9,002 nt of DNA from a virus (IMGVR_UViG_3300031577_000046), one strand, 5' to 3'. Positions 1-9,002 are shown, counted from the first letter of the stretch. A program made the numbers and translations. Notes: generated by a model not told the origin, from the sequence alone.

Positions 1-63
1 CGTCTGTTGAGCACATCCTGTAATAAGCATTGCCAGAGCGGCAGAAAACAACATTTTTTTCAT
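1..63 (-). CDS. iss: Bor/Iss-family outer-membrane lipoprotein (serum-resistance, lysogenic-conversion protein); N-terminal 21 codons only, gene runs off the left edge
   Basis: Reverse complement of 1-63 translates to MKKMLFSAALAMLITGCAQQT: basic n-region, hydrophobic core and lipobox ITG|C, as in lambda Bor / E. coli Iss recalled from memory. AGGA Shine-Dalgarno 7 nt upstream (plus coords 71-74 as TCCT). An in-frame upstream ATG at 76-78 would add MQDNK but has no SD. Confidence 0.8.
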   Translation of the reverse strand, partial: MKKMLFSAALAMLITGCAQQT

Positions 64-79
64 CTTATTATCCTGCATT

Positions 80-108
80 GTTAAAAACGGCAGAATCCTA
101 TGTGACAA
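80..108 (-). promoter_or_regulatory. Candidate sigma70 promoter for bor/iss (-35 TTGTCA, 17-bp spacer, -10 TTTAAC on the minus strand)
   Basis: On the plus strand TGACAA sits at 103-108 and GTTAAA at 80-85, 17 bp apart, just upstream of the bor/iss SD. The hexamers are imperfect (5/6 and 4/6 to consensus); this is pattern matching only. Confidence 0.25.
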
Positions 109-555
109 CAATTAAACGATGGTTAAATGGATTGATGAAAATTAAAACAATATAGGTGGACGCTCAGACTATTGGAGGGAGTCGGAGACACTCAGAATTA
201 TGTGAATGAAATAAACCGCTCTATCTGTCCATTACCCTTTTAGCTGCGCTGTATCGTCGCCGTATTCCCGCATTAACCATAACCGTAGCCCGACGGGGAA
301 TTCCTTCTGCGTGAGTGTGCGGGAATAATCAAAAACGATGCACACCGGGTTTTTACCGCGTTTATGGTTCGCGGGTTTGTCCCTCATGCTCGCCAGTCCT
401 GTGCGGGGGTGGAAGAAACAGGACACTCACTCAGATTCTTGTGGGCACGATGCTATGCCTTTCTGGATTATCCCGATGCCATTCATGCAAGGCGCTGTAT
501 CAGACGTTCGTCAGAGCTGTCAGGCTGACGGGTCCTCCCGGTGGGGTGGCCTGCC

Positions 556-575
556 ACGGGGCGGTAGCGGCGCGG
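556..575. other. Candidate cosN (terminase nicking site); predicted 12-nt cohesive end GGGCGGTAGCGG at 559-570
   Basis: ACGGGGCGGTAGCGGCGCGG aligns with lambda cosN ACG|GGGCGGCGACCT|CGCGG recalled from memory: identical flanks (ACG, CGCGG) and 7/12 identity in the overhang. It lies about 180 bp upstream of the small-terminase start, the same distance as cosN to Nu1 in lambda. Confidence 0.5.
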
Positions 576-580
576 AAAAA

Positions 581-745
581 GGCTAGTTTTTGAAATTTCA
601 TCCGTCATCACCACCAATGCAACTAATTGATATTCCAGATATTTTATTTTTTCTGGTGTCGATTTTGATTGTTTTTTGTTCATCACTAACGCCGTTTATC
701 TAAAGTTGTTCGCAAGATGCATGTTTAAAACATTCTGGAGCGGGT
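581..745. other. Candidate cosB-like region (small-terminase / IHF binding) between cosN and the small terminase gene
   Basis: AT-rich non-coding stretch with short repeats (GATAT twice at ~630-645, GATTTTGATTG at ~661-671) and an inverted repeat CCAGA-N12-TCTGG (~635-656). Position matches lambda cosB; individual binding sites cannot be assigned from sequence. Confidence 0.35.
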
Positions 746-1240
746 ATGGATCGGGAGTTGAAAAATCTGACGCTGAATATCAGTCAACTGGCGGCACTGT
801 CAGGAGTACATCGCCAGACTGCTGCGGCAAGGCTGCAAAATCTACCCGTTGCAGGGGGGCATGAAAGCAACCTCAAGCTTTATCGGGTGGTTGATATTGT
901 GTCGGCATTTCTGGCATTACCACCGCCGGTTGCAGAAGGCGAAATGGACGCGCATGAGCGCAAAGCCTGGTATCAGTCTGAACGTGAGCGTCTTAAGTTC
1001 GAACAGGAAACGGCACAACTCATTCCGGCCAGTGATGTCAGACGGGAGTTTGCCATCTGGGCAAAAGCGGTCGTGCAGGTGCTGGAGACATTACCGGATA
1101 TTCTGGAACGCGACTGCGGTCTGCAGCCTGCCGCTGTGAGCCGTGTTCAGTCCATTATTGATGATCTGCGCGATCAGATAGCCCTGCGGGTGACCGAAGC
1201 AGGTGCGGATGATGAGGAGGAATTACAGCAGGAGGAGTAA
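746..1240 (+). CDS. nu1: Terminase small subunit, lambda Nu1 family (164 aa)
   Basis: ATG at 746 with GGAG at 737-740 (5-nt spacer). N-terminal HTH-like segment LNISQLAALSGVHRQTAAARLQ and overall resemblance to lambda gpNu1, acidic C-terminus. Sits immediately upstream of and overlapping (TAATG) the large terminase. Confidence 0.85.
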   Translation: MDRELKNLTLNISQLAALSGVHRQTAAARLQNLPVAGGHESNLKLYRVVDIVSAFLALPPPVAEGEMDAHERKAWYQSERERLKFEQETAQLIPASDVRREFAIWAKAVVQVLETLPDILERDCGLQPAAVSRVQSIIDDLRDQIALRVTEAGADDEEELQQEE

Positions 1241-3342
1241 TGCTGAATCAGGAAACCGCAAAGGCAGCACGAACCGATTCAGGTTATATCCTTCGCGCAC
1301 CGAGACGAATGCGGGTTGCTGATGCCGTCGCTCAGTATATGCGGGTACCCATGGGAGCCGGGAACTCAGTCCCGTGGGATCCGCTGGTGGCACCGTATGT
1401 TATTGAACCGATGAACTGTCTGGCCTCGCGTGAATACGACGCAGTGATATTTGTTGGCCCGGCACGAACCGGCAAGACTATCGGCCTGATTGACGGCTGG
1501 GTGATTTACAACGTGATTTGCGATCCTGCGGATATGCTGATCATTCAGATGACGGAGGAAAAAGCCCGCGAACACTCCAAAAAACGACTCGCCAGAACGT
1601 TTCGCGTCAGCCCGGAAGTGGTCAGTCGCCTGAGTCCGAACAAAAATGACAACAACGTTTATGACAGAACATTCCTTACTGGCAACTACCTGAAAATCGG
1701 CTGGCCGTCAGTCAATATCATGTCCTCATCAGATTATAAATGCGTGGCGCTGACGGATTATGATCGTTTCCCGGAAGATATTGATGGTGAGGGGGATGCC
1801 TTCTCTCTTGCCTCAAAACGTACCACCACATTTATGTCCAGTGGTATGACGCTGGTGGAGAGTTCCCCCGGCAGGGATGTGAAGGATGTGAAATGGCGAC
1901 GGACTTCACCACATGAGGCTCCACCAACCACGGGGATCCTGTCGCTCTATAATCGTGGCGATCGCCGTCGCTGGTACTGGCCCTGTCCACACTGTGGTGA
2001 GTATTTTCAGCCCTGCGGCGATGTGGTTGCTGGTTTCCGTGATATTGCCGATCCCGTGCTGGCAAGTGAGGCGGCTTATATTCAGTGTCCTTCCTGTTCC
2101 GGACGGATTATGCCTGAACAAAAACGTGAGCTGAACGGACGTGGGGTCTGGTTGCGGGATGGTGAATCCATCAATGCGGATGGCAGTCGTTATGGTGATC
2201 CCCGACGCTCACGTATTGCGTCATTCTGGATGGAGGGTCCGGCTGCTGCTTACCAGACACTCTCGCAACTCGTTTACAAACTGCTTACTGCAGAACAGGA
2301 ATACGAGACAACCGGAAGTGAAGAAACACTCAAGACGGTTATCAATACCGACTGGGGATTACCTTATCTTCCCCGCGCCAGCATGGAGCAACGAAAAAGT
2401 GAACTGCTTGAGCAGCGGGCAGAGCCAGTTCCTTCCCGCAGTGTGCCGGATGGCGTTAATTTCCTTGTGGCGACAGTGGATGTGCAGGCGGGACGTCATC
2501 GCCGTTTTGTGGTTCAGGTAACGGGCTATGGCAGCCGTGGCGAACGCTGGATTATTGATCGTTACAACATCACGCAGTCATTGCGCGGTGACAGCGACGG
2601 GGAGAGCCAGCGAATTGATCCGGCCAGCTATCCGGAAGACTGGGATGTCCTGCTGACGGATGTTTTTCATAAAAGCTGGCCGCTGGCCTCCGATCCTTCT
2701 CAACAAATGCGACTGATGGCAATGGCGGTGGACTCCGGTGGTGAAGACGGGGTCACTGATAATGCCTATAAATTCTGGCGTCGTTGCCGTCGTGATGGCC
2801 TTGGTAAACGTATTTACCTGTTTAAGGGCGACAGCATCCGGCGCGCAAAACTGATCACCCGTACATTCCCTGATAACACCGGACGAACGGGCCGACGGGC
2901 GCAGGCCGCAGGTGATGTGCCGCTCTGGCTTCTTCAGACGGATGCCCTGAAAGACCGGGTGAATAACGCGTTATGGCGTGACTCGCCAGGTCCCGGCTAT
3001 GTGCATTTCCCTGACTGGCTGGGGAGCTGGTTTTACGACGAACTGACGTATGAAGAGCGTAGCAGTGACGGAAAATGGAGTAAGCCGGGTCGCGGTGCCA
3101 ACGAAGCCTTTGACCTGATGGTGTATGCCGAGGCTCTGGTCATTCTGCATGGATACGAAAAGATCCGCTGGCCGGATGCACCGGAATGGGCGAGCCGGGA
3201 AACCTGGCTGGAGTGTGTCCCGGACAGTACCGAACCGTCACTCTCACCGGAACCGGTATCCACGCCTGTTAAAAAACAAAAACGGAAGAAAACAGTAACT
3301 GACGATGTTAACCCCTGGCTGACTTCCGGAGGATGGTTATGA
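1240..3342 (+). CDS. A: Terminase large subunit, lambda gpA family (700 aa)
   Basis: Walker-A-like VGPARTGKT at aa 72-80 (nt 1453-1479). Motifs CPHCGEYFQPCGD, WIIDRYNI and C-terminal GYVHFPDW...EAFDLMVYAEAL parallel lambda gpA (CPHCGEE, WLIDRQII, GAVHFP...EALDCFVYALAA). Start overlaps the Nu1-like stop. Confidence 0.95.
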   Translation: MLNQETAKAARTDSGYILRAPRRMRVADAVAQYMRVPMGAGNSVPWDPLVAPYVIEPMNCLASREYDAVIFVGPARTGKTIGLIDGWVIYNVICDPADMLIIQMTEEKAREHSKKRLARTFRVSPEVVSRLSPNKNDNNVYDRTFLTGNYLKIGWPSVNIMSSSDYKCVALTDYDRFPEDIDGEGDAFSLASKRTTTFMSSGMTLVESSPGRDVKDVKWRRTSPHEAPPTTGILSLYNRGDRRRWYWPCPHCGEYFQPCGDVVAGFRDIADPVLASEAAYIQCPSCSGRIMPEQKRELNGRGVWLRDGESINADGSRYGDPRRSRIASFWMEGPAAAYQTLSQLVYKLLTAEQEYETTGSEETLKTVINTDWGLPYLPRASMEQRKSELLEQRAEPVPSRSVPDGVNFLVATVDVQAGRHRRFVVQVTGYGSRGERWIIDRYNITQSLRGDSDGESQRIDPASYPEDWDVLLTDVFHKSWPLASDPSQQMRLMAMAVDSGGEDGVTDNAYKFWRRCRRDGLGKRIYLFKGDSIRRAKLITRTFPDNTGRTGRRAQAAGDVPLWLLQTDALKDRVNNALWRDSPGPGYVHFPDWLGSWFYDELTYEERSSDGKWSKPGRGANEAFDLMVYAEALVILHGYEKIRWPDAPEWASRETWLECVPDSTEPSLSPEPVSTPVKKQKRKKTVTDDVNPWLTSGGWL

Positions 3343-3551
3343 ACCAGAATGATATTGAAGCCATGATTCAGCGTTATACGGAAGCTGAAATGGCGGTGCT
3401 GGACGGAAAATCCGTCACCTTTAATGGTCAGCAGATGACCATGGAAAACTTATCTGAGATCCGACAGGGGCGGCAGGAGTGGGAGCGCCGCCTTGCGGCT
3501 CTGATTACACGACGACGGGGGCATCCCGGGTACCGGCTGGCGAGGTTCTGA
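3339..3551 (+). CDS. W: Head-tail joining protein, lambda gpW family (70 aa)
   Basis: Small protein between terminase and portal with a C-terminal RRRGHPG motif like lambda gpW (RRRGPAG). ATG 3339 overlaps the terminase TGA (ATGA, 3339-3342) and has GGAGG at 3328-3332 (6-nt spacer). The ATG at 3333 in the ORF track has no spacer to the SD. Confidence 0.85.
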   Translation: MNQNDIEAMIQRYTEAEMAVLDGKSVTFNGQQMTMENLSEIRQGRQEWERRLAALITRRRGHPGYRLARF

Positions 3552-5059
3552 TGGCAATTCTTGATGATGTGATTGGCGTTTTTTCTCCAGGATGGAAAGC
3601 GGCAAGGCTGCGTTCCCGTGCGGTGATCCAGGCTTATGAGGCCGTAAAAACGACGCGGACACACAAAGCCCGACGGGAGAACCGAACTGCCGACCAGTTA
3701 AGCCAGTACGGGGCCGTGTCGTTACGTGAGCAGGCCCGTTACCTTGATAACAACCACGATCTGGTTATTGGTGTATTTGACAAGCTGGAAGAACGGGTGG
3801 TGGGGAAAAACGGGATTATTGTCGAGCCACATCCGGTATTACGCAATGGGGCCATTGCCCGTGATCTGGCAGCGGAGATACGCACCCGATGGAGTGAATG
3901 GTCTGTCAGTCCGGAAGTCACCGGGCAGTTTACCCGTCCGATGCTGGAACGTCTGATGCTGCGTACCTGGCTGCGCGATGGTGAGGTGTTTGCCCAGATG
4001 GTTTCCGGGCGCATAAACAGCCTGACGCCTTCTGCCGGTGTTCATTTCTGGCTGGAGGCACTCGAGCCAGACTTTATTCCCATGATCAGTGATGAGAGCA
4101 ACAGGCTGAATCAGGGCGTGTTTGTTGATGACTGGGGGCGTCCCGAAAAATATCTGGTGTATAAAAGCCGTCCCGTATCCGGACGGCAGATGGAAACCAA
4201 AGAAGTGGATGCAGAGCGAATGCTGCATCTTAAATTTGTTCGCCGTCTGCACCAGATGCGCGGGACGTCTTTATTGTCCGGTGTACTGATCCGCCTCAGT
4301 GCCCTGAAAGAGTATGAAGATTCTGAGCTGATTGCAGCAAGGATCGCCGCTGCTCTGGGGATGTACATCCGGAAAGGCGACGGGCAGAGCTATGAACCGG
4401 ATGGTAATGGCAGCAAGGAGAATGAACGCGAGCTTACCATTCAGCCAGGCATTATTTACGACGATCTGAAACCCGGCGAAGAAATCGGAATGGTGAAGTC
4501 AGATCGCCCCAATCCTAACCTTGAAACTTTTCGTAATGGTCAGTTGCGTGCCGTGGCGGCGGGCAGTCGTCTGAGTTTTTCCAGTACGGCGCGCAACTAT
4601 AACGGCACTTACAGCGCCCAGCGTCAGGAGCTGGTTGAGTCTACTGATGGCTACCTGATCCTGCAGGACTGGTTTATTGGTGCCGTCACCCGCCCGATGT
4701 ACCGTGCCTGGCTGAAACAGGCTGTGGCATTCGGTGTTATCAGGCTACCCCGCGATCTTGACCGTTCTTCACTGTATACCGCGGTGTATTCCGGACCGGT
4801 GATGCCATGGATTGACCCTGTTAAGGAGGCTGAGGCCTGGAAAATTCAGATTCGTGGTGGAGCGGCGACAGAATCAGACTGGGTACGTGCAGGTGGTCGT
4901 AATCCGGATGATGTCAAACGTCGGCGCAAGGCCGAAATTGATGAAAACCGCAAGCTGGATCTGGTATTTGATACCGATCCGGCCAGTGATAAAGGAGGCA
5001 GCAGTGCCGCAACGAAACGACAGGATCCGCAGCACACCGACGACCAGTCCGAAGAATAA
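3551..5059 (+). CDS. B: Portal protein, lambda gpB family (502 aa)
   Basis: Large protein at the portal position between W and the protease/capsid gene. ATG 3551 overlaps the W stop (TGATG at 3549-3553); the upstream in-frame codons of the track ORF (from 3479) lie inside W. Family call is from size, synteny and a STAR(N/A)... motif, without a search. Confidence 0.85.
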   Translation: MAILDDVIGVFSPGWKAARLRSRAVIQAYEAVKTTRTHKARRENRTADQLSQYGAVSLREQARYLDNNHDLVIGVFDKLEERVVGKNGIIVEPHPVLRNGAIARDLAAEIRTRWSEWSVSPEVTGQFTRPMLERLMLRTWLRDGEVFAQMVSGRINSLTPSAGVHFWLEALEPDFIPMISDESNRLNQGVFVDDWGRPEKYLVYKSRPVSGRQMETKEVDAERMLHLKFVRRLHQMRGTSLLSGVLIRLSALKEYEDSELIAARIAAALGMYIRKGDGQSYEPDGNGSKENERELTIQPGIIYDDLKPGEEIGMVKSDRPNPNLETFRNGQLRAVAAGSRLSFSSTARNYNGTYSAQRQELVESTDGYLILQDWFIGAVTRPMYRAWLKQAVAFGVIRLPRDLDRSSLYTAVYSGPVMPWIDPVKEAEAWKIQIRGGAATESDWVRAGGRNPDDVKRRRKAEIDENRKLDLVFDTDPASDKGGSSAATKRQDPQHTDDQSEE

Positions 5060-5072
5060 TTCCTGGTTCAGG

Positions 5073-7031
5073 ATGCAGGCTGGTCACCAGAGTGACGCGG
5101 ATATTTATATTTATGACGAGATTGGTTTCTGGGGTGTTACGGCGAAGCAGTTTATCAGTGATCTGAATGCACTGGGCGATATCACCCACATTAATCTCCA
5201 TATCAATTCACCGGGTGGCGATGTCTTTGAAGGCATCGCCATTTTTAATGCGCTGAAAACACATAGTGCGTCCATTACCGTTTATGTCGACGGTGTGGCG
5301 GCATCAATGGCGTCGGTCATTGCGATGGTGGGAAACCCGGTCATTATGCCGGAAAACACCTTCATGATGATTCATAAACCATTTGGCTTTACGGGCGGTG
5401 ATGCGGAGGACATGCGCACCTATGCCGACCTGCTCGATAAAGTTGAGGCGGTTCTGTTACCCGCTTATGCACAGAAAACCGGGAAAACCACCGATGAAAT
5501 TGCTGCCATGCTGGCGGATGAGACCTGGATGTCCGGTGCCGAATGTCTGGCACATGGATTTGCTGATCAGGTGACGCCAGCCGTTAAGGCAATGGCATGT
5601 ATTCAGTCAAAACGTACAGAGGAATTTAAAAAGATGCCGGAATCCATTCGAAACATGATTACTCCGCCACGCAACAGTGCTCCACGCGTACAGGATGATG
5701 AACCTGCTGCCTCCCGGACACCAGTGCAGGCAGCAGCACCAGTGGTGGATGAAAACAGCATCCGTGTGCAGGTACTGGCAGAGCAAAAAGCGCGTGTAAA
5801 CGGTATTAATGATCTGTTTGCCATGTTTGGCGGGCGTTATCAGACGCTGCAGGCTCAGTGCCTTGCCGATCCTGAATGTTCGCTGGAGCAGGCCCGCGAA
5901 AAGCTGTTGAACGAGATGGGGCGCGAGTCCACGCCATCCAATAAAAATACCCAGGCTCATATTTATGCCGGGAACGGTAATTTTGTTGGGGACGGGATCC
6001 GCCAGGCGCTGATGTCGCGTGCCGGATTTGAAAAAACCGAACGTGATAATGTCTACAACGGAATGACCCTGCGTGAATATGCCCGTATGTCACTGACTGA
6101 ACGGGGTATTGTGGTTTCCAGTTATAACCCGATGCAGATGGTCGGTGCGGCGTTCACACACAGTACGTCTGACTTCGGTAATATTCTGCTGGATGTTGCG
6201 AACAAAGCCATTCTGCAGGGTTGGGAATATGCCCCTGAAACCTACGAACAGTGGACGCGGAAAGGTCAGTTGTCTGATTTTAAAATTGCCCATCGTGTGG
6301 GTATGGGGGGCTTCAGTGCTCTGCGTCAGGTGCGTGAAGGGGCGGAATATAAATACGTCACCACCGGAGATAAACAGGCCACTATTGCACTGGCGACCTA
6401 TGGCGAACTGTTCAGTATCACCCGTCAGGCCATTATCAACGATGATCTGAATATGCTGACCGATGTCCCGATGAAACTGGGTCGTGCGGCGAAATCCACT
6501 ATTGCCGATCTGGTTTATGCCATTCTGACGTCTAACCCGAAGATCTCCACAGATAATGTAAGCCTGTTCGATAAAGCGAAACATGCAAACGTACTGGAGA
6601 GCGCAGCAATGGACGTGGCATCGCTGGATAAAGCCCGCCAGTTGATGCGTGTTCAGAAAGAGGGTGAGCGTCATCTGAATATTCGTCCTGCGTTCGTACT
6701 GGTACCGACGGCGATGGAGTCTGTTGCTAACCAGGTCATTCGCTCCTCAAGTGTCAAGGGGGCTGACATTAACGCCGGTATTATTAACCCGGTGAAAGAT
6801 TTTGCGACCGTTATTGCAGAGCCTCGTCTTGATGATAACAGCCAGACCACCTTTTATCTGGCTGCGTCCAAAGGCTCCGATACGATTGAAGTGGCTTATC
6901 TCAACGGTGTGGATACGCCATATATTGATCAGATGGAGGGCTTCAGTGTGGATGGCGTGACAACTAAAGTGCGTATTGACGCCGGTGTTGCGCCAGTTGA
7001 TCACCGCGGTCTGGTGAAATGTACGGCGTAA
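5073..7031 (+). CDS. Tripartite head gene: ClpP-like (S14) prohead protease, scaffold-like linker and HK97-fold major capsid protein in one 652-aa ORF (Gifsy-2-type)
   Basis: ClpP catalytic motifs are present: GVAASMAS (Ser78, nt 5304-5306) and MMIHKPFG (His101, nt 5373-5375), matching E. coli ClpP AASMG / MIHQPLGG. A Pro/Ala-rich linker follows (~5655-5750), then a predicted helical segment, then ~350 aa of capsid-like sequence to the stop at 7029-7031. Start is ambiguous: ATG 5073 (weak SD, 14 nt after portal stop) or in-frame GTG 5004 with AAGGAGG at 4992-4998. Confidence 0.85.
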   Translation: MQAGHQSDADIYIYDEIGFWGVTAKQFISDLNALGDITHINLHINSPGGDVFEGIAIFNALKTHSASITVYVDGVAASMASVIAMVGNPVIMPENTFMMIHKPFGFTGGDAEDMRTYADLLDKVEAVLLPAYAQKTGKTTDEIAAMLADETWMSGAECLAHGFADQVTPAVKAMACIQSKRTEEFKKMPESIRNMITPPRNSAPRVQDDEPAASRTPVQAAAPVVDENSIRVQVLAEQKARVNGINDLFAMFGGRYQTLQAQCLADPECSLEQAREKLLNEMGRESTPSNKNTQAHIYAGNGNFVGDGIRQALMSRAGFEKTERDNVYNGMTLREYARMSLTERGIVVSSYNPMQMVGAAFTHSTSDFGNILLDVANKAILQGWEYAPETYEQWTRKGQLSDFKIAHRVGMGGFSALRQVREGAEYKYVTTGDKQATIALATYGELFSITRQAIINDDLNMLTDVPMKLGRAAKSTIADLVYAILTSNPKISTDNVSLFDKAKHANVLESAAMDVASLDKARQLMRVQKEGERHLNIRPAFVLVPTAMESVANQVIRSSSVKGADINAGIINPVKDFATVIAEPRLDDNSQTTFYLAASKGSDTIEVAYLNGVDTPYIDQMEGFSVDGVTTKVRIDAGVAPVDHRGLVKCTA

Positions 7032-7054
7032 ACGTTGCAGACAACAACTCTGAT

Positions 7055-7074
7055 GGCCCGTAAGGGCTTTTTTT
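7055..7074 (+). terminator. Candidate intrinsic terminator / mRNA-stabilising hairpin after the capsid gene
   Basis: Stem G7056CCC / GGGC7067 closed by GNRA tetraloop GTAA (7060-7063), followed by a run of seven T (7068-7074), 25 nt after the capsid stop. The stem is only 4-5 bp, so it is probably weak or leaky. Confidence 0.45.
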
Positions 7075-7085
7075 GTACCTGAAAT

Positions 7086-7104
7086 CAGCCCCTGAACGGG
7101 GCTG
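7086..7104 (+). promoter_or_regulatory. Stem-loop immediately upstream of the SD of the next gene (possible translational or stability element)
   Basis: Perfect 7-bp stem CAGCCCC (7086-7092) / GGGGCTG (7098-7104) with 5-nt loop TGAAC and no T-run. It ends 3 nt before the GGAG SD (7108-7111) of the 7118 CDS. Confidence 0.3.
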
Positions 7105-7117
7105 TGCGGAGACAGTT

Positions 7118-7441
7118 ATGGCAAAGAATTTTGTAGAAGAAGGAAAAACGGTGGCGATTGTTGCCAGTGCAGCCATCAGCAGCGGAGATCTGGTGCAGGT
7201 GGGTGATGTTTTTGCGGTGGCGCTGACCGATATTCCACAGGGTGAAACAGGCGACGGCATGACCGAAGGTGTGTTTATGCTGCCTAAGCTGAAAACGGAT
7301 GACATGAAAACGGGTAATAAGGTCTATCTGAAGTCCGGAAAAGTTCAGCTGACTAACAGCGGCTCTGATCCGCTGGTCGGGGTTGTCTGGGCAGATGCCG
7401 GAACCAGTGCAGAAGAAGTGCCGGTAAAACTCAATGTCTGA
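7118..7441 (+). CDS. Small head protein, probable decoration/cement protein (DUF2190-like by recollection); not similar to lambda gpD (107 aa)
   Basis: ATG 7118 with GGAG at 7108-7111 (6-nt spacer). Gly/Val/Ala-rich sequence of the DUF2190 phage-protein type as I recall it. Sits directly after the capsid gene and before FII, where lambda has FI; function is inferred from position and composition. Confidence 0.55.
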   Translation: MAKNFVEEGKTVAIVASAAISSGDLVQVGDVFAVALTDIPQGETGDGMTEGVFMLPKLKTDDMKTGNKVYLKSGKVQLTNSGSDPLVGVVWADAGTSAEEVPVKLNV

Positions 7442-7709
7442 TCCCTTTTCCCGGCTGGCAGCGCGTATGGATGCGATCACGGTCAGAAAGATGGGAAAGA
7501 CAGCCTCGATTAATGATGTCGATATGACTGTGATCCCGGGAGAAACACTGGCAGAGCTGAATGCTCTGTCCGGACCGTCGGTCTCTCTGGTGGTGTTTTC
7601 TTCGGGATACCGCCCACGGCGCGGGGATCGCGTTGTTTATGACGGACAACAATGGACGGTCACACGGCATGAACGCTTTAACGGTAAACCAATGATCTTT
7701 ATTGAGTAA
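7434..7709 (+). CDS. FII: Head-tail joining protein, lambda gpFII family (91 aa)
   Basis: N-terminus MSDPFSRLAARMDAITVRKMGKTASI parallels lambda FII MADFDNLFDAAIARADETIRGYMGTSATI, and RRGDRVVYDGQQWTV parallels RRGDTLTIGEENFWV. Start overlaps the preceding stop by 8 nt (ATGTCTGA). Confidence 0.75.
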   Translation: MSDPFSRLAARMDAITVRKMGKTASINDVDMTVIPGETLAELNALSGPSVSLVVFSSGYRPRRGDRVVYDGQQWTVTRHERFNGKPMIFIE

Positions 7710-7720
7710 AGAGGTGTGGG

Positions 7721-8299
7721 ATGAAGGGGCTTGAGAACGCCATCCGCAATCTGAACAGCCTTGATACCCGTATGGTACCGCAGGCCAGCGCATGGACGAT
7801 AAACCGTGTGGCACAGAAAGCGGTCTCGGTTGCCACGCATCAGGTCGCGCAGAATACCGTGGCGGGAGATAACCAGGTGAAGGGGATCCCTTTTCGGATT
7901 GTAAAAGAACGTGTCCGGGTACTGAAAGCCACCCCGACAGGAAAAATGTATGCTCGAATTCGCATTAACCGGGGCAACCTGCCCGCCATTAAGCTGGGGA
8001 CGGCCCGGGTCAGACTGGCCCGGCGTGGTGGAAAACTGCGGTACCGTGGCAGTGTGCTGAAGGTGGGTAAATATCTTTTCCGGGATGCGTTTATTCAACA
8101 ACTGGCGAATGGTCGCTGGCATGTGATGCGGCGTATTGACGGCAAAAATCGTTACCCCATTGATGTGGTGAACATCCCGATGGCCGGACCGCTGACACAG
8201 GCATTTGAAGATGCCCGCGACCGCATCATTGCTGCGGAGATGCCGAAACAGCTGGGGTATGCACTGAAACAACAACTGAGGTTATGGCTGACCCGATGA
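7721..8299 (+). CDS. Z: Tail completion protein, lambda gpZ family (192 aa)
   Basis: Same length as lambda gpZ, with near-identical blocks: FIQQLANGRWHVMRRIDGKNRYPIDVVNIPMAGPLTQAF versus lambda FIQQLKNGRWHVMQRVAGKNRYPIDVVKIPMAVPLTTAF (from memory). GAGG at 7711-7714, 6-nt spacer. Confidence 0.9.
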   Translation: MKGLENAIRNLNSLDTRMVPQASAWTINRVAQKAVSVATHQVAQNTVAGDNQVKGIPFRIVKERVRVLKATPTGKMYARIRINRGNLPAIKLGTARVRLARRGGKLRYRGSVLKVGKYLFRDAFIQQLANGRWHVMRRIDGKNRYPIDVVNIPMAGPLTQAFEDARDRIIAAEMPKQLGYALKQQLRLWLTR

Positions 8300-8697
8300 A
8301 CCGACATACACAAATCCGCCAGGTCGTACTGGCACGCCTTCGGGAACAGTGTGGAGACGGCGCCACGTTTTTTGACGGGCTTCCGGCATTTGTTGATGCG
8401 CAGGAACTGCCCGCCGTGGCGGTGTGGCTGAGTGATGCACAGTACACCGGAAAAATGACGGATGAAGATGACTGGCAGGCTGTTCTGCATATTGCCGTCT
8501 TCATCCGGGCACAGGCACCGGATTCAGAGCTGGATATGTGGATGGAGAGCACCATTGTCCCGGCCCTGAATGATATACCGGCACTTTCCGGACTCATCGA
8601 CACCCTGAGCCCACTCGGTTTTAACTATCAACGTGATAATGAGATGGCCACCTGGGCGATGGCGGAAATCACGTACCAGATCACGTACACGAATTAA
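8296..8697 (+). CDS. U: Tail terminator protein, lambda gpU family (133 aa)
   Basis: [12 protein letters not shown]...GATFFDG...[14 protein letters not shown]...[11 protein letters not shown]...DIPALSGLI closely parallels lambda gpU (MKHTELRAAVL...GATFFDG...PAVAVYLTGAEYTG...PDSELDAWMES). ATG 8296 overlaps the Z stop (ATGA, 8296-8299). The in-frame ATG at 8284 is possible but the homolog alignment favours 8296. Confidence 0.9.
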
Positions 8698-8707
8698 GGA
8701 GGTGGCA

Positions 8708-9002
8708 ATGACCACACCAAATCCACGGGCAAAAACGAAAGGTGCGGGGACGACGTTCTGGATGTATACCGGCAACGGCGACGCATTTGCGAACCCTTTA
8801 TCGGACACTGACTGGCTGCGTCTTGCGATGGTGAAGGATCTGCAACCTGGCGAAATGACCGCTGATGCAGAAGATGACACTTATCTCGATGATGAAGATG
8901 CAGACTGGAAAACGACAACTCAGGGGCAGAAATCCGTCGGTGATACTTCGGCGACGCTGGCCTGGCATCCGGTAAGAAAAAAACACGCGACCCCCGTAAT
9001 GA
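8708..9002 (+). CDS. V: Major tail protein, lambda gpV family; first 98 codons only, gene continues past the right edge
   Basis: AAGGAGG at 8696-8702, 5-nt spacer, ATG 8708. Translation [45 protein letters not shown]...YLDDEDADW matches lambda gpV ([41 protein letters not shown]...YLDDEDADW). No stop before the window end. Confidence 0.9.

Follow-up and report, generated by a model that had tools for sequence, protein, structure and literature searches.

Introduction

In phage T7, the terminator Tφ, which follows the major capsid gene 10, is leaky; it has a long, stable stem and a measured partial efficiency, and it acts on T7 RNA polymerase. Leaky terminators have also been documented in other phages as a device for balancing expression. 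Here we describe the gap between the major capsid gene and the head cement gene of IMGVR_UViG_3300031577_000046, a viral sequence of 9,002 nucleotides (nt), the whole of which is referred to as the window. The gap contains two hairpins, numbered 1 and 2 from the 5′ side, and resembles the T7 locus in that a terminator stands directly behind the most abundant structural gene and the structural genes downstream are supplied by read-through, but it differs in that the host polymerase would be acting under Q antitermination and in that the terminator is a predicted one, with a stem of 4–5 base pairs (bp).

The window comes from a lambdoid phage of the mEp460/Ayreon/cdtI type, of whose late operon it forms the left end, and its DNA is 98–99% identical to that of the Escherichia phages Ayreon, mEp460 and cdtI and their relatives. 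Lambdoid phages transcribe their late genes with Q-modified polymerase, an enzyme that reads past terminators. Such Q-type antitermination of the late operon has been restated for P22 and L (bioRxiv 10.1101/2020.10.05.325894), and the P22-like phage L likewise has a predicted intrinsic terminator just after its capsid-assembly genes, in a late operon that is antiterminated and has a single promoter. The authors of that study (Zaworski et al., bioRxiv 10.1101/2020.10.05.325894) propose partial termination, or a block of non-antiterminated transcription, for terminators whose ‘roles are not known’. Phage L differs from the present case in having an unrelated head module with no sequence similarity, and no second hairpin adjoining a Shine–Dalgarno (SD) sequence is described for it.

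Stabilizer hairpins that set differential half-lives within operons have been demonstrated experimentally for the malE–malF repetitive extragenic palindromic (REP) sequences, Rhodobacter puf, the papBA processing site and the 5′ stem–loop of ompA. The stable intercistronic or terminal hairpin of these systems has the geometry that we propose, by analogy, for hairpin 2 and the linker that precedes it. No sequence is shared with hairpin 2, however, which is not a REP element and whose role here is a putative one.

Short RNAs with an intrinsic terminator, namely AgvB/AsxR, PasA–D and HnrS, are also encoded in the late regions of Escherichia coli lambdoid prophages, but the gap described here lies elsewhere. 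AgvB/AsxR occupy a moron site downstream of PR′; PasB is antisense and lies between tail genes I and J; and HnrS (EcOnc10–12) lies beyond the lysis cassette of prophages whose head module is of another kind. Identity with HnrS was rejected on this ground, and identity with PasB was rejected because of its position and the absence of its probe sequence from the window. The tail I/J gap of about 240 nt that holds PasB/EcOnc22 (2757–2996 in the E2348/69 stretch L013, and 7692–7931 in the Sakai Sp15 stretch L014) is itself another conserved non-coding island of related late operons, outside the window.

Results and Discussion

The gap between the capsid and cement genes

The gap and its immediate boundary contain the following features.

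7032–7054, plus strand: G-poor, unstructured spacer ACGTTGCAGACAACAACTCTGAT, between the capsid stop codon and hairpin 1.
7055–7068, plus strand: hairpin 1, GGCCC-GUAA-GGGCU, identified by folding, by a terminator scan and from annotation in relatives.
7068–7074, plus strand: T7 tract (seven T), the U-tract of the terminator, which starts at the base of the stem.
7075–7085, plus strand: A/U-rich single-stranded linker GTACCTGAAAT, with the family consensus ATACCTGAAAT.
7086–7104, plus strand: hairpin 2, CAGCCCC-UGAAC-GGGGCUG, in which a 7-bp stem without mismatches encloses a loop of 5 nt.
7108–7111, plus strand: SD sequence GGAG of the cement gene, separated from hairpin 2 by TGC (3 nt) and from the ATG at 7118 by 6 nt.

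A preliminary description, made from the window sequence, had given the sequence and coordinates of both hairpins and of the T7 tract, and the distance to the SD, all of them correctly. It had also called this the only sizeable gap in the operon, and with annotated gene starts the 86 nt of 7032–7117 are indeed the sole junction longer than 13 nt; the remaining junctions in the window overlap or measure at most 13 nt. The RNA folding energies that it proposed as a check were −8.8 kcal/mol (z −2.3) for hairpin 1 and −13.9 kcal/mol (z −3.6) for hairpin 2.

In order to follow the gap through related phages, three sets of relatives were used: phage records obtained by DNA and protein similarity, 80 loci of species-representative genomes obtained via the conserved capsid C-terminus, and at least 120 viral contigs obtained via the motif of hairpin 1 plus linker. 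Of about 75 loci, nearly all have 65–92 nt between the stop codon of the capsid gene and the start of the cement gene; the loci span Escherichia, Salmonella, Klebsiella, Proteus and Yersinia and reach out to Shewanella and Pseudomonas. Nearly all members from the Enterobacterales have both hairpins in one common layout, which consists of a G-poor variable spacer, GCCC-N4-GGGC with the T7 tract, the linker, a hairpin of 6–10 bp, approximately 0–3 nt, GGAG, 4–10 nt and the start codon. Among the viral-contig matches listed (at least 120), 117 of 120 sit between the capsid C-terminus and the cement gene and the other three end at contig edges, so that the module is specific to this junction rather than a mobile or generic element. 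One locus of the relatives, JAEWTL010000010.1, is labelled ‘MAG: Bacillota bacterium’; its capsid C-terminus is 100% identical to that of the present Escherichia-type phage and its gap differs at one base, and an error of binning or contamination is the probable source of the label.

Conservation and covariation of hairpin 2

The arms of hairpin 2 are CAGCCCC (7086–7092) and GGGGCTG (7098–7104), around the loop TGAAC (7093–7097). From the window sequence alone this hairpin is not significant, since the window contains two perfect 7-bp inverted repeats with a loop of 3–8 nt and about three are expected by a rough chance count (positions × loop sizes × 4^−7); we take it as real because of the comparative data. 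Of the 48 distinct genome-derived relatives, 46 have hairpin 2, as do 56 of the 57 distinct viral-contig modules, and the stems are 6–10 bp long. The 48 sequences had been chosen by a regular expression requiring GCCC-N4-GGGC-T6+, a selection without effect on the statistics for hairpin 2 or for the linker. Across both sets the stem takes at least 44 distinct sequences, and the mean pairwise identity of the arms is only 0.38. Wobbles in these stems comprise 20 G·U or U·G pairs against a single C·A, which argues that the selected molecule is the sense-strand RNA and not a DNA duplex or an antisense transcript. The loops are mostly tetraloops, among which the stabilizing loops UUCG and GCAA occur 10 times and four times, respectively.

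In a covariance-model alignment, six of the seven pairs of hairpin 2 are changed at both bases, with a covariation score of 0.234 as compared with 0.118 for shuffled alignments (none of 500 shuffles as high, and lower values for slid controls), although an alignment fitted to a structure leans towards that structure, and here the register is imperfect, with helix 2 paired at 79%. The folding of each sequence by itself, which gave the counts above, is independent of this alignment, and a covariance model of the whole layout gave one match per locus. Alignment of the gap with MAFFT followed by RNAalifold recovered just three pairs of hairpin 2, because the register of the stem shifts between sequences. 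A helix supported by covariation is the generic mark of a conserved cis-regulatory RNA and hairpin 2 has it; the comparative evidence thus clearly points to an RNA structure under selection on the sense strand. The preliminary description had noted a perfect 7-bp stem ending 3 nt before the SD, which is exact for the window, and in the relatives it is the structure that has been kept.

None of the GenBank records examined annotates hairpin 2 or the linker. The Rfam covariance models gave nothing at the gathering threshold in the whole window, and at E ≤ 10 the region 6800–7400 gave two chance matches, neither of them in the gap. Judged from these alignments, hairpin 2 and the linker are a robustly conserved cis-RNA element, supported by covariation, of which we found no annotation or description.

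Hairpin 1 is a weak predicted terminator

Hairpin 1 is made up of GCCC (7056–7059), the tetraloop GTAA (7060–7063) and GGGC (7064–7067), giving four G–C pairs and an optional G·U pair between 7055 and 7068. The terminator begins 24 nt past the capsid stop codon (TAA, 7029–7031), ends 44 nt ahead of the ATG at 7118, and is non-coding and in the sense orientation. It shows the features expected of an intrinsic terminator, namely a GC-rich stem, a loop of 3–8 nt, an adjoining run of U and a sense position after a stop codon, and the pattern GCCCN4GGGCTTTTT occurs once in the window as against 0.01 expected by chance. The terminator-like character claimed for it in the preliminary description is borne out both by this anatomy and by independent annotation of the same bases: a rho-independent terminator is annotated in mEp460 (JQ182728) at 6334–6353, which corresponds exactly to 7055–7074 of the window, and in Ayreon (MF807953) at 6325–6359, which covers hairpin 1, both in DNA of 98–99% identity, and in mEp043 (JQ182734) at 6294–6312, which is the homologous hairpin. 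These features are predictions by software or curators and cover hairpin 1 alone.

As a terminator, hairpin 1 lies at the short, weak end of the range. In the same phage type, the gap that follows major tail gene V (Ayreon 8733–8789, beyond the right end of the window) has a single 7-bp hairpin, GCCCCGG-UUAU-CCGGGGC-U6, of −16.2 kcal/mol compared with −8.8 kcal/mol here; that terminator, which is annotated in the same mEp460, Ayreon and mEp043 records, adjoins the next SD directly, with no second hairpin. A terminator thus follows each of the two most abundant structural genes, capsid and major tail. Hairpin 1 with its T7 tract is, on these predictions, a weak intrinsic terminator that has already been annotated and is of a well-known general kind.

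A loose generic scan for terminators returned 23 sites in the window against eight in shuffled sequences, hairpin 1 among them. Terminator-like hairpins are also present on both strands of the portal gene (4167–4230), where the one on the minus strand (4187–4167) has a 7-bp stem with six GC pairs (GCCGTCC...GGACGGC) followed by TTTTAT. The window has three T7 runs in all, that of hairpin 1 included; the other T7/A7 runs lie at 54–60, near the left end and upstream of the terminase genes, and at 8977–8983, on the minus strand at the start of the major tail gene.

GCCC-N4-GGGC with T7 is present in 48 of approximately 69 distinct gaps (about 70%), with an identical stem and a variable loop. This is the informative figure, because the invariance of the stem and T-tract within the 48 sequences, in which the T-run is exactly seven in 46 and eight in the other two, is partly produced by the regular expression that selected them. 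Hairpin 1 has an invariant stem in the main clade and shows no covariation there; more distant clades have different stems. By such sequence comparison, hairpin 1 is conserved far beyond neutral expectation. The preliminary description called it a GNRA stem–loop, which is right for the window (GTAA) and does not extend to the family: just 21 of the 48 relatives share a GNRA loop, and the mean pairwise identity of the loop is 0.55. The GCCC/GGGC stem presumably resembles that of boxB, but we rejected a reading of hairpin 1 as a lambda nut boxB, because of the GNRA count, its position in the late rather than the early operon, and the U7 that follows it. A put-like element of the HK022 kind was considered as well.

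The two hairpins vary together among clades. Those without hairpin 2 (Shewanella, Psychromonas, Pseudomonas and the Pasteurella phage Pmp14) have one long terminator stem of 8–14 bp, whereas in the clade resembling Citrobacter phage Chris1 hairpin 1 has 6–8 bp and hairpin 2 has its own U-run and lies 10–14 nt from the SD. These latter loci (L011, L073, L074, L076, L085, L089 and L091) are tandem terminator-like hairpins, for example GGAGTGGCG...GCTGCTCC-TTTTTT. A very short hairpin 1 is always paired with a strong second hairpin approximately 10 nt downstream, which suggests that the two work together.

The spacer, linker and ribosome-binding site

The spacer is variable in sequence among the relatives, with a G content of 12%, and would be long enough to keep a ribosome at the stop codon off hairpin 1. 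The linker, by comparison, has a mean pairwise identity of 0.74 and reaches at least 0.84 at five positions; for third codon positions of the flanking genes the mean is 0.46. It is 11 nt long here and 8–13 nt, mostly 10–11 nt, in the relatives, in which it has the layout ATA(C/T)CT(G/A)AAAT; its C and T are conserved at 0.96 and 0.84, and its conserved end lies 0–3 nt from hairpin 2.

The SD is GGAG in 46 of the 48 relatives and GAGG in two, 4–10 nt from the start codon. The distance between hairpin 2 and the SD is 0–3 nt in all 46 parsed genome-derived sequences and 1–5 nt in the viral set, and the SD never lies inside the stem proper, apart from an overlap of 1 nt in two of the 46. When the accessibility of the SD was modelled, its mean unpaired probability was 0.36 for native sequences and 0.30 once hairpin 2 had been disrupted or deleted (p 0.03–0.06), while in the window the effect was reversed, at 0.30 native and 0.55 with hairpin 2 deleted. 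In the minimum free energy (MFE) fold of 7025–7125, CUG (7079–7081) pairs with CGG (7107–7109) and UUGU (7073–7076) with ACAG (7112–7115), around hairpin 2. In these models, neither a gating effect of hairpin 2 nor a strong SD-presenting effect is supported.

A proposed two-part mRNA module

The explanation that we favour, with about even confidence, is that in this gap the Gifsy-2/mEp460-type head cluster has a conserved, cis-acting mRNA module of two parts, in which a weak terminator is combined with a second hairpin that acts post-transcriptionally. Hairpin 1 and U7 would form a deliberately weak intrinsic terminator about 24 nt past the capsid stop, which would stop polymerase lacking the Q modification, such as that of leaky or spurious transcription in a lysogen, and would also stop a minority of late polymerases, giving capsid-only transcripts that end in a 3′ hairpin. 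Hairpin 2 would act after transcription, on the read-through mRNA, where it would block 3′-to-5′ exonucleases arriving from downstream and so protect the capsid cistron; were an endonuclease to cut in the A/U-rich linker, it would become the protective 5′-terminal stem–loop of the mRNA for the cement and downstream genes, and in either state it would leave the SD single-stranded. Hairpin 2 may thus be an element for mRNA stability or one that frames the ribosome-binding site. The efficiency of termination, cleavage of the linker and effects on mRNA half-life or translation are steps that we infer from the geometry of the gap and from general knowledge of mRNA decay in E. coli. RNase E has a 5′-end dependence, and a conserved linker ending 0–3 nt before hairpin 2 has the geometry by which cleavage would leave a protected 5′ end; it is by this geometry alone that hairpin 2 fits the description of an ompA-type 5′ stabilizer.

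Several points weigh against this account. Under Q antitermination a terminator of 4–5 bp and −8.8 kcal/mol should be ignored by most late polymerases, so that during lytic growth hairpin 1 may have almost no effect, and a 4-bp hairpin is a poor barrier to exonucleases. Cement proteins are normally required in capsid-like copy number, and as this is probably true here attenuation at this junction is not obviously useful. The effect of hairpin 2 on accessibility of the SD in silico is both small and inconsistent, the linker is, in our reading, a loose match to the preferences of RNase E, and the gap after tail gene V, where one strong terminator is followed by the SD, argues that hairpin 2 is not a general requirement. 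The same considerations bear on two proposals of the preliminary description. Its suggestion of partial termination or 3′-end protection agrees with the roles proposed in the literature, but a weak stem under Q antitermination would be mostly read through. Its suggestion that the arrangement keeps capsid mRNA high and downstream genes lower does not hold up well, because the next gene encodes the cement protein; a boundary after the cement gene would fit such a purpose better.

Alternative explanations

A possible but distinctly less probable explanation is that hairpin 2 is mainly a translation element, a rigid hairpin that insulates the ribosome-binding site of the cement gene from the U-tract and capsid mRNA and so secures very high translation, perhaps also stacking on the helix between SD and anti-SD, with hairpin 1 an ordinary weak terminator. 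The close spacing of hairpin 2 and SD in both sets of relatives, the presence of GGAG or GAGG at 4–10 nt from the start in 48 of 48, and the nature of the product, a cement protein, are all in keeping with this. So is the slightly higher predicted accessibility of the SD in native sequences than in those with hairpin 2 disrupted or deleted, although that difference (0.36 versus 0.30) is small and is reversed in the window. The SD of the capsid gene itself looks weak, which would mean that the translation signals of the two genes differ. On the other hand, tight spacing could be mere compaction, the Chris1-like clade has hairpin 2 at 10–14 nt from the SD with a U-run after it, and more distant relatives express the same pair of genes without hairpin 2.

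Slightly less probable again, in our view, is that the gap punctuates the operon by processing: the late mRNA that Q-modified polymerase makes by reading through hairpin 1 would be cut in the linker, leaving a capsid mRNA with a capped 3′ end and a cement and tail mRNA whose 5′ end is capped by hairpin 2, the two having separate half-lives. If this were true, the module rather than termination would set the ratio of head to tail proteins, and the persistence of weak terminators in antiterminated late operons would be explained.

The preliminary description proposed that the second stem may gate translation of the small head protein, here the cement protein. A version of this, which we regard as improbable, is that hairpin 2 brings the linker pyrimidines CCU/UCU (7078–7080) beside the purines of the SD to form a clamp helix that partly hides the SD until it is opened. 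The clamp pairs CUG/CGG and UUGU/ACAG do appear in the MFE fold around hairpin 2, an analogous CCU/AGG closure is found in Gifsy-2, the linker C and T are the conserved positions noted above, and the mean unpaired probability of the SD is just 0.36. However, the clamp has only 2–3 bp, which span an asymmetric internal loop, and many relatives lack it in their MFE structures; the SD lies outside the stem proper, bar the 1-nt overlap in two of 46; and the removal of hairpin 2 does not raise accessibility on average, the SD being no more occluded with the hairpin (0.36) than without it (0.30). A high-copy protein would moreover be an unlikely target of constitutive repression, and no trigger for the opening is known.

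It is very improbable that the 3′ untranslated region of the capsid gene is released, with hairpin 1 and U7, as an Hfq-binding small RNA (sRNA) or sponge, for example a GcvB mimic that boosts late uptake of amino acids. Terminators with a U7 tail are what Hfq usually binds, and Hfq sRNAs are encoded in prophage late regions. With GcvB located by Rfam, the spacer segment ACAACAAC (7041–7048) was seen to be a perfect 8-nt complement of the GcvB R1 seed, with a duplex energy at the 4th percentile of locus windows, and the Sakai Sp15 version of the spacer lies at the 0.4th percentile. Among 55 distinct relatives, however, complementarity to R1 is at background (median percentile 0.65, with 5% below 0.05), and the spacer sequence is not conserved; a GcvB sponge or AgvB-like anti-sRNA was therefore rejected as a property of the family, AgvB itself lying in the moron site. 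By locus, homology and Hfq binding, the gap does not belong with the prophage Hfq sRNAs: AgvB/AsxR, PasB and HnrS map to other sites, and none of 64 Sakai Hfq peaks obtained by CRAC (cDNA analysis after cross-linking) falls in the Sp15 gap (2911142–2911228), although these were from uninduced lysogens, in which a late-only RNA would escape detection.

Equally remote is the idea that the hairpins are DNA-level or antisense features, either back-to-back convergent terminators (hairpin 2 with the A-run of the linker) or a recombination-promoting boundary linker, for although the minus-strand fold of hairpin 2 has −15.2 kcal/mol and is followed by AUUUC here and by U4–U5 in some relatives, antisense sRNAs such as PasB/EcOnc22 occur elsewhere in such late operons, and megablast homology to Fels-1 ends at 7074, the 20 plus-strand G·U pairs would be C·A mismatches on the minus strand (with one pair the other way), the minus-strand U-run in the window is just three U, the promoter scan shows no nearby promoter to drive antisense transcription, and blastn homology to Fels-1 and Gifsy-2 runs on through the cement gene, which argues against a mosaic breakpoint.

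Gene organization of the window

Gene starts were taken from the annotation of Ayreon and mEp460, window positions being those of Ayreon plus 720. The genes identified are as follows.

746–1240: small terminase gene (Pfam).
1240–3342: large terminase gene (Pfam).
Also in the window: lambda-type portal gene (Pfam).
Also in the window: genes for a Gifsy-2/FII-like protein and for homologues of gpZ and gpU (Pfam).
5073–7031, plus strand: fused ClpP-type head protease/scaffold/major capsid gene, with the start as in Ayreon (4353–6311) and mEp460 (4352–6310).
7118–7441, plus strand: head cement/decoration gene of 107 residues (Pfam Phage_cement_2, PF09956, E 1.4e-20).

The mechanical open reading frame of the capsid gene is longer (4812–7031, 739 residues), with matches to the Pfam families CLP_protease at residues 95–255 and Phage_capsid_4 at residues 442–736; the annotated ATG at 5073 has a weak and badly spaced SD (CAGGATG). 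Public records differ in naming this fusion, and protease, scaffold, Nu3 and major head protein are all used. The product of the cement gene is labelled ‘head decoration’ in NC_019716 and NC_009514. A frame opened by TTG at 7073 contains no stop, takes in the linker, hairpin 2 and the SD, and continues in frame as the cement gene (to 7441), adding 15 codons, which is probably a mechanical coincidence. Sigma-70-like promoter matches are strongly depleted across the window (1–9002), with one observed against 8.4 ± 2.5 in shuffled sequences, as fits a long operon with a single upstream promoter.

Implications

Overall the finding is a modest one: the conserved cis-RNA motif is new but its general kind is known, and nothing in it is categorically new. 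Predicted terminators are common inside the antiterminated late operons of lambdoid phages, and the capsid–cement junction offers a clean test case, in which a weak and nearly invariant terminator stem stands beside a hairpin that has kept both its structure and its place at the ribosome-binding site through at least 44 sequences. If the module were to have no measurable effect, hairpin 1 would be one more annotated terminator, and the gain would be a candidate cis-RNA family for annotation pipelines. If the capsid, cement and tail proteins owe their relative amounts to the module, it would be an example of phage stoichiometry set post-transcriptionally, and any such control of expression would make it a possible compact part for balancing engineered operons. 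In either case, the site is a good experimental handle on why weak terminators occur in antiterminated late operons.

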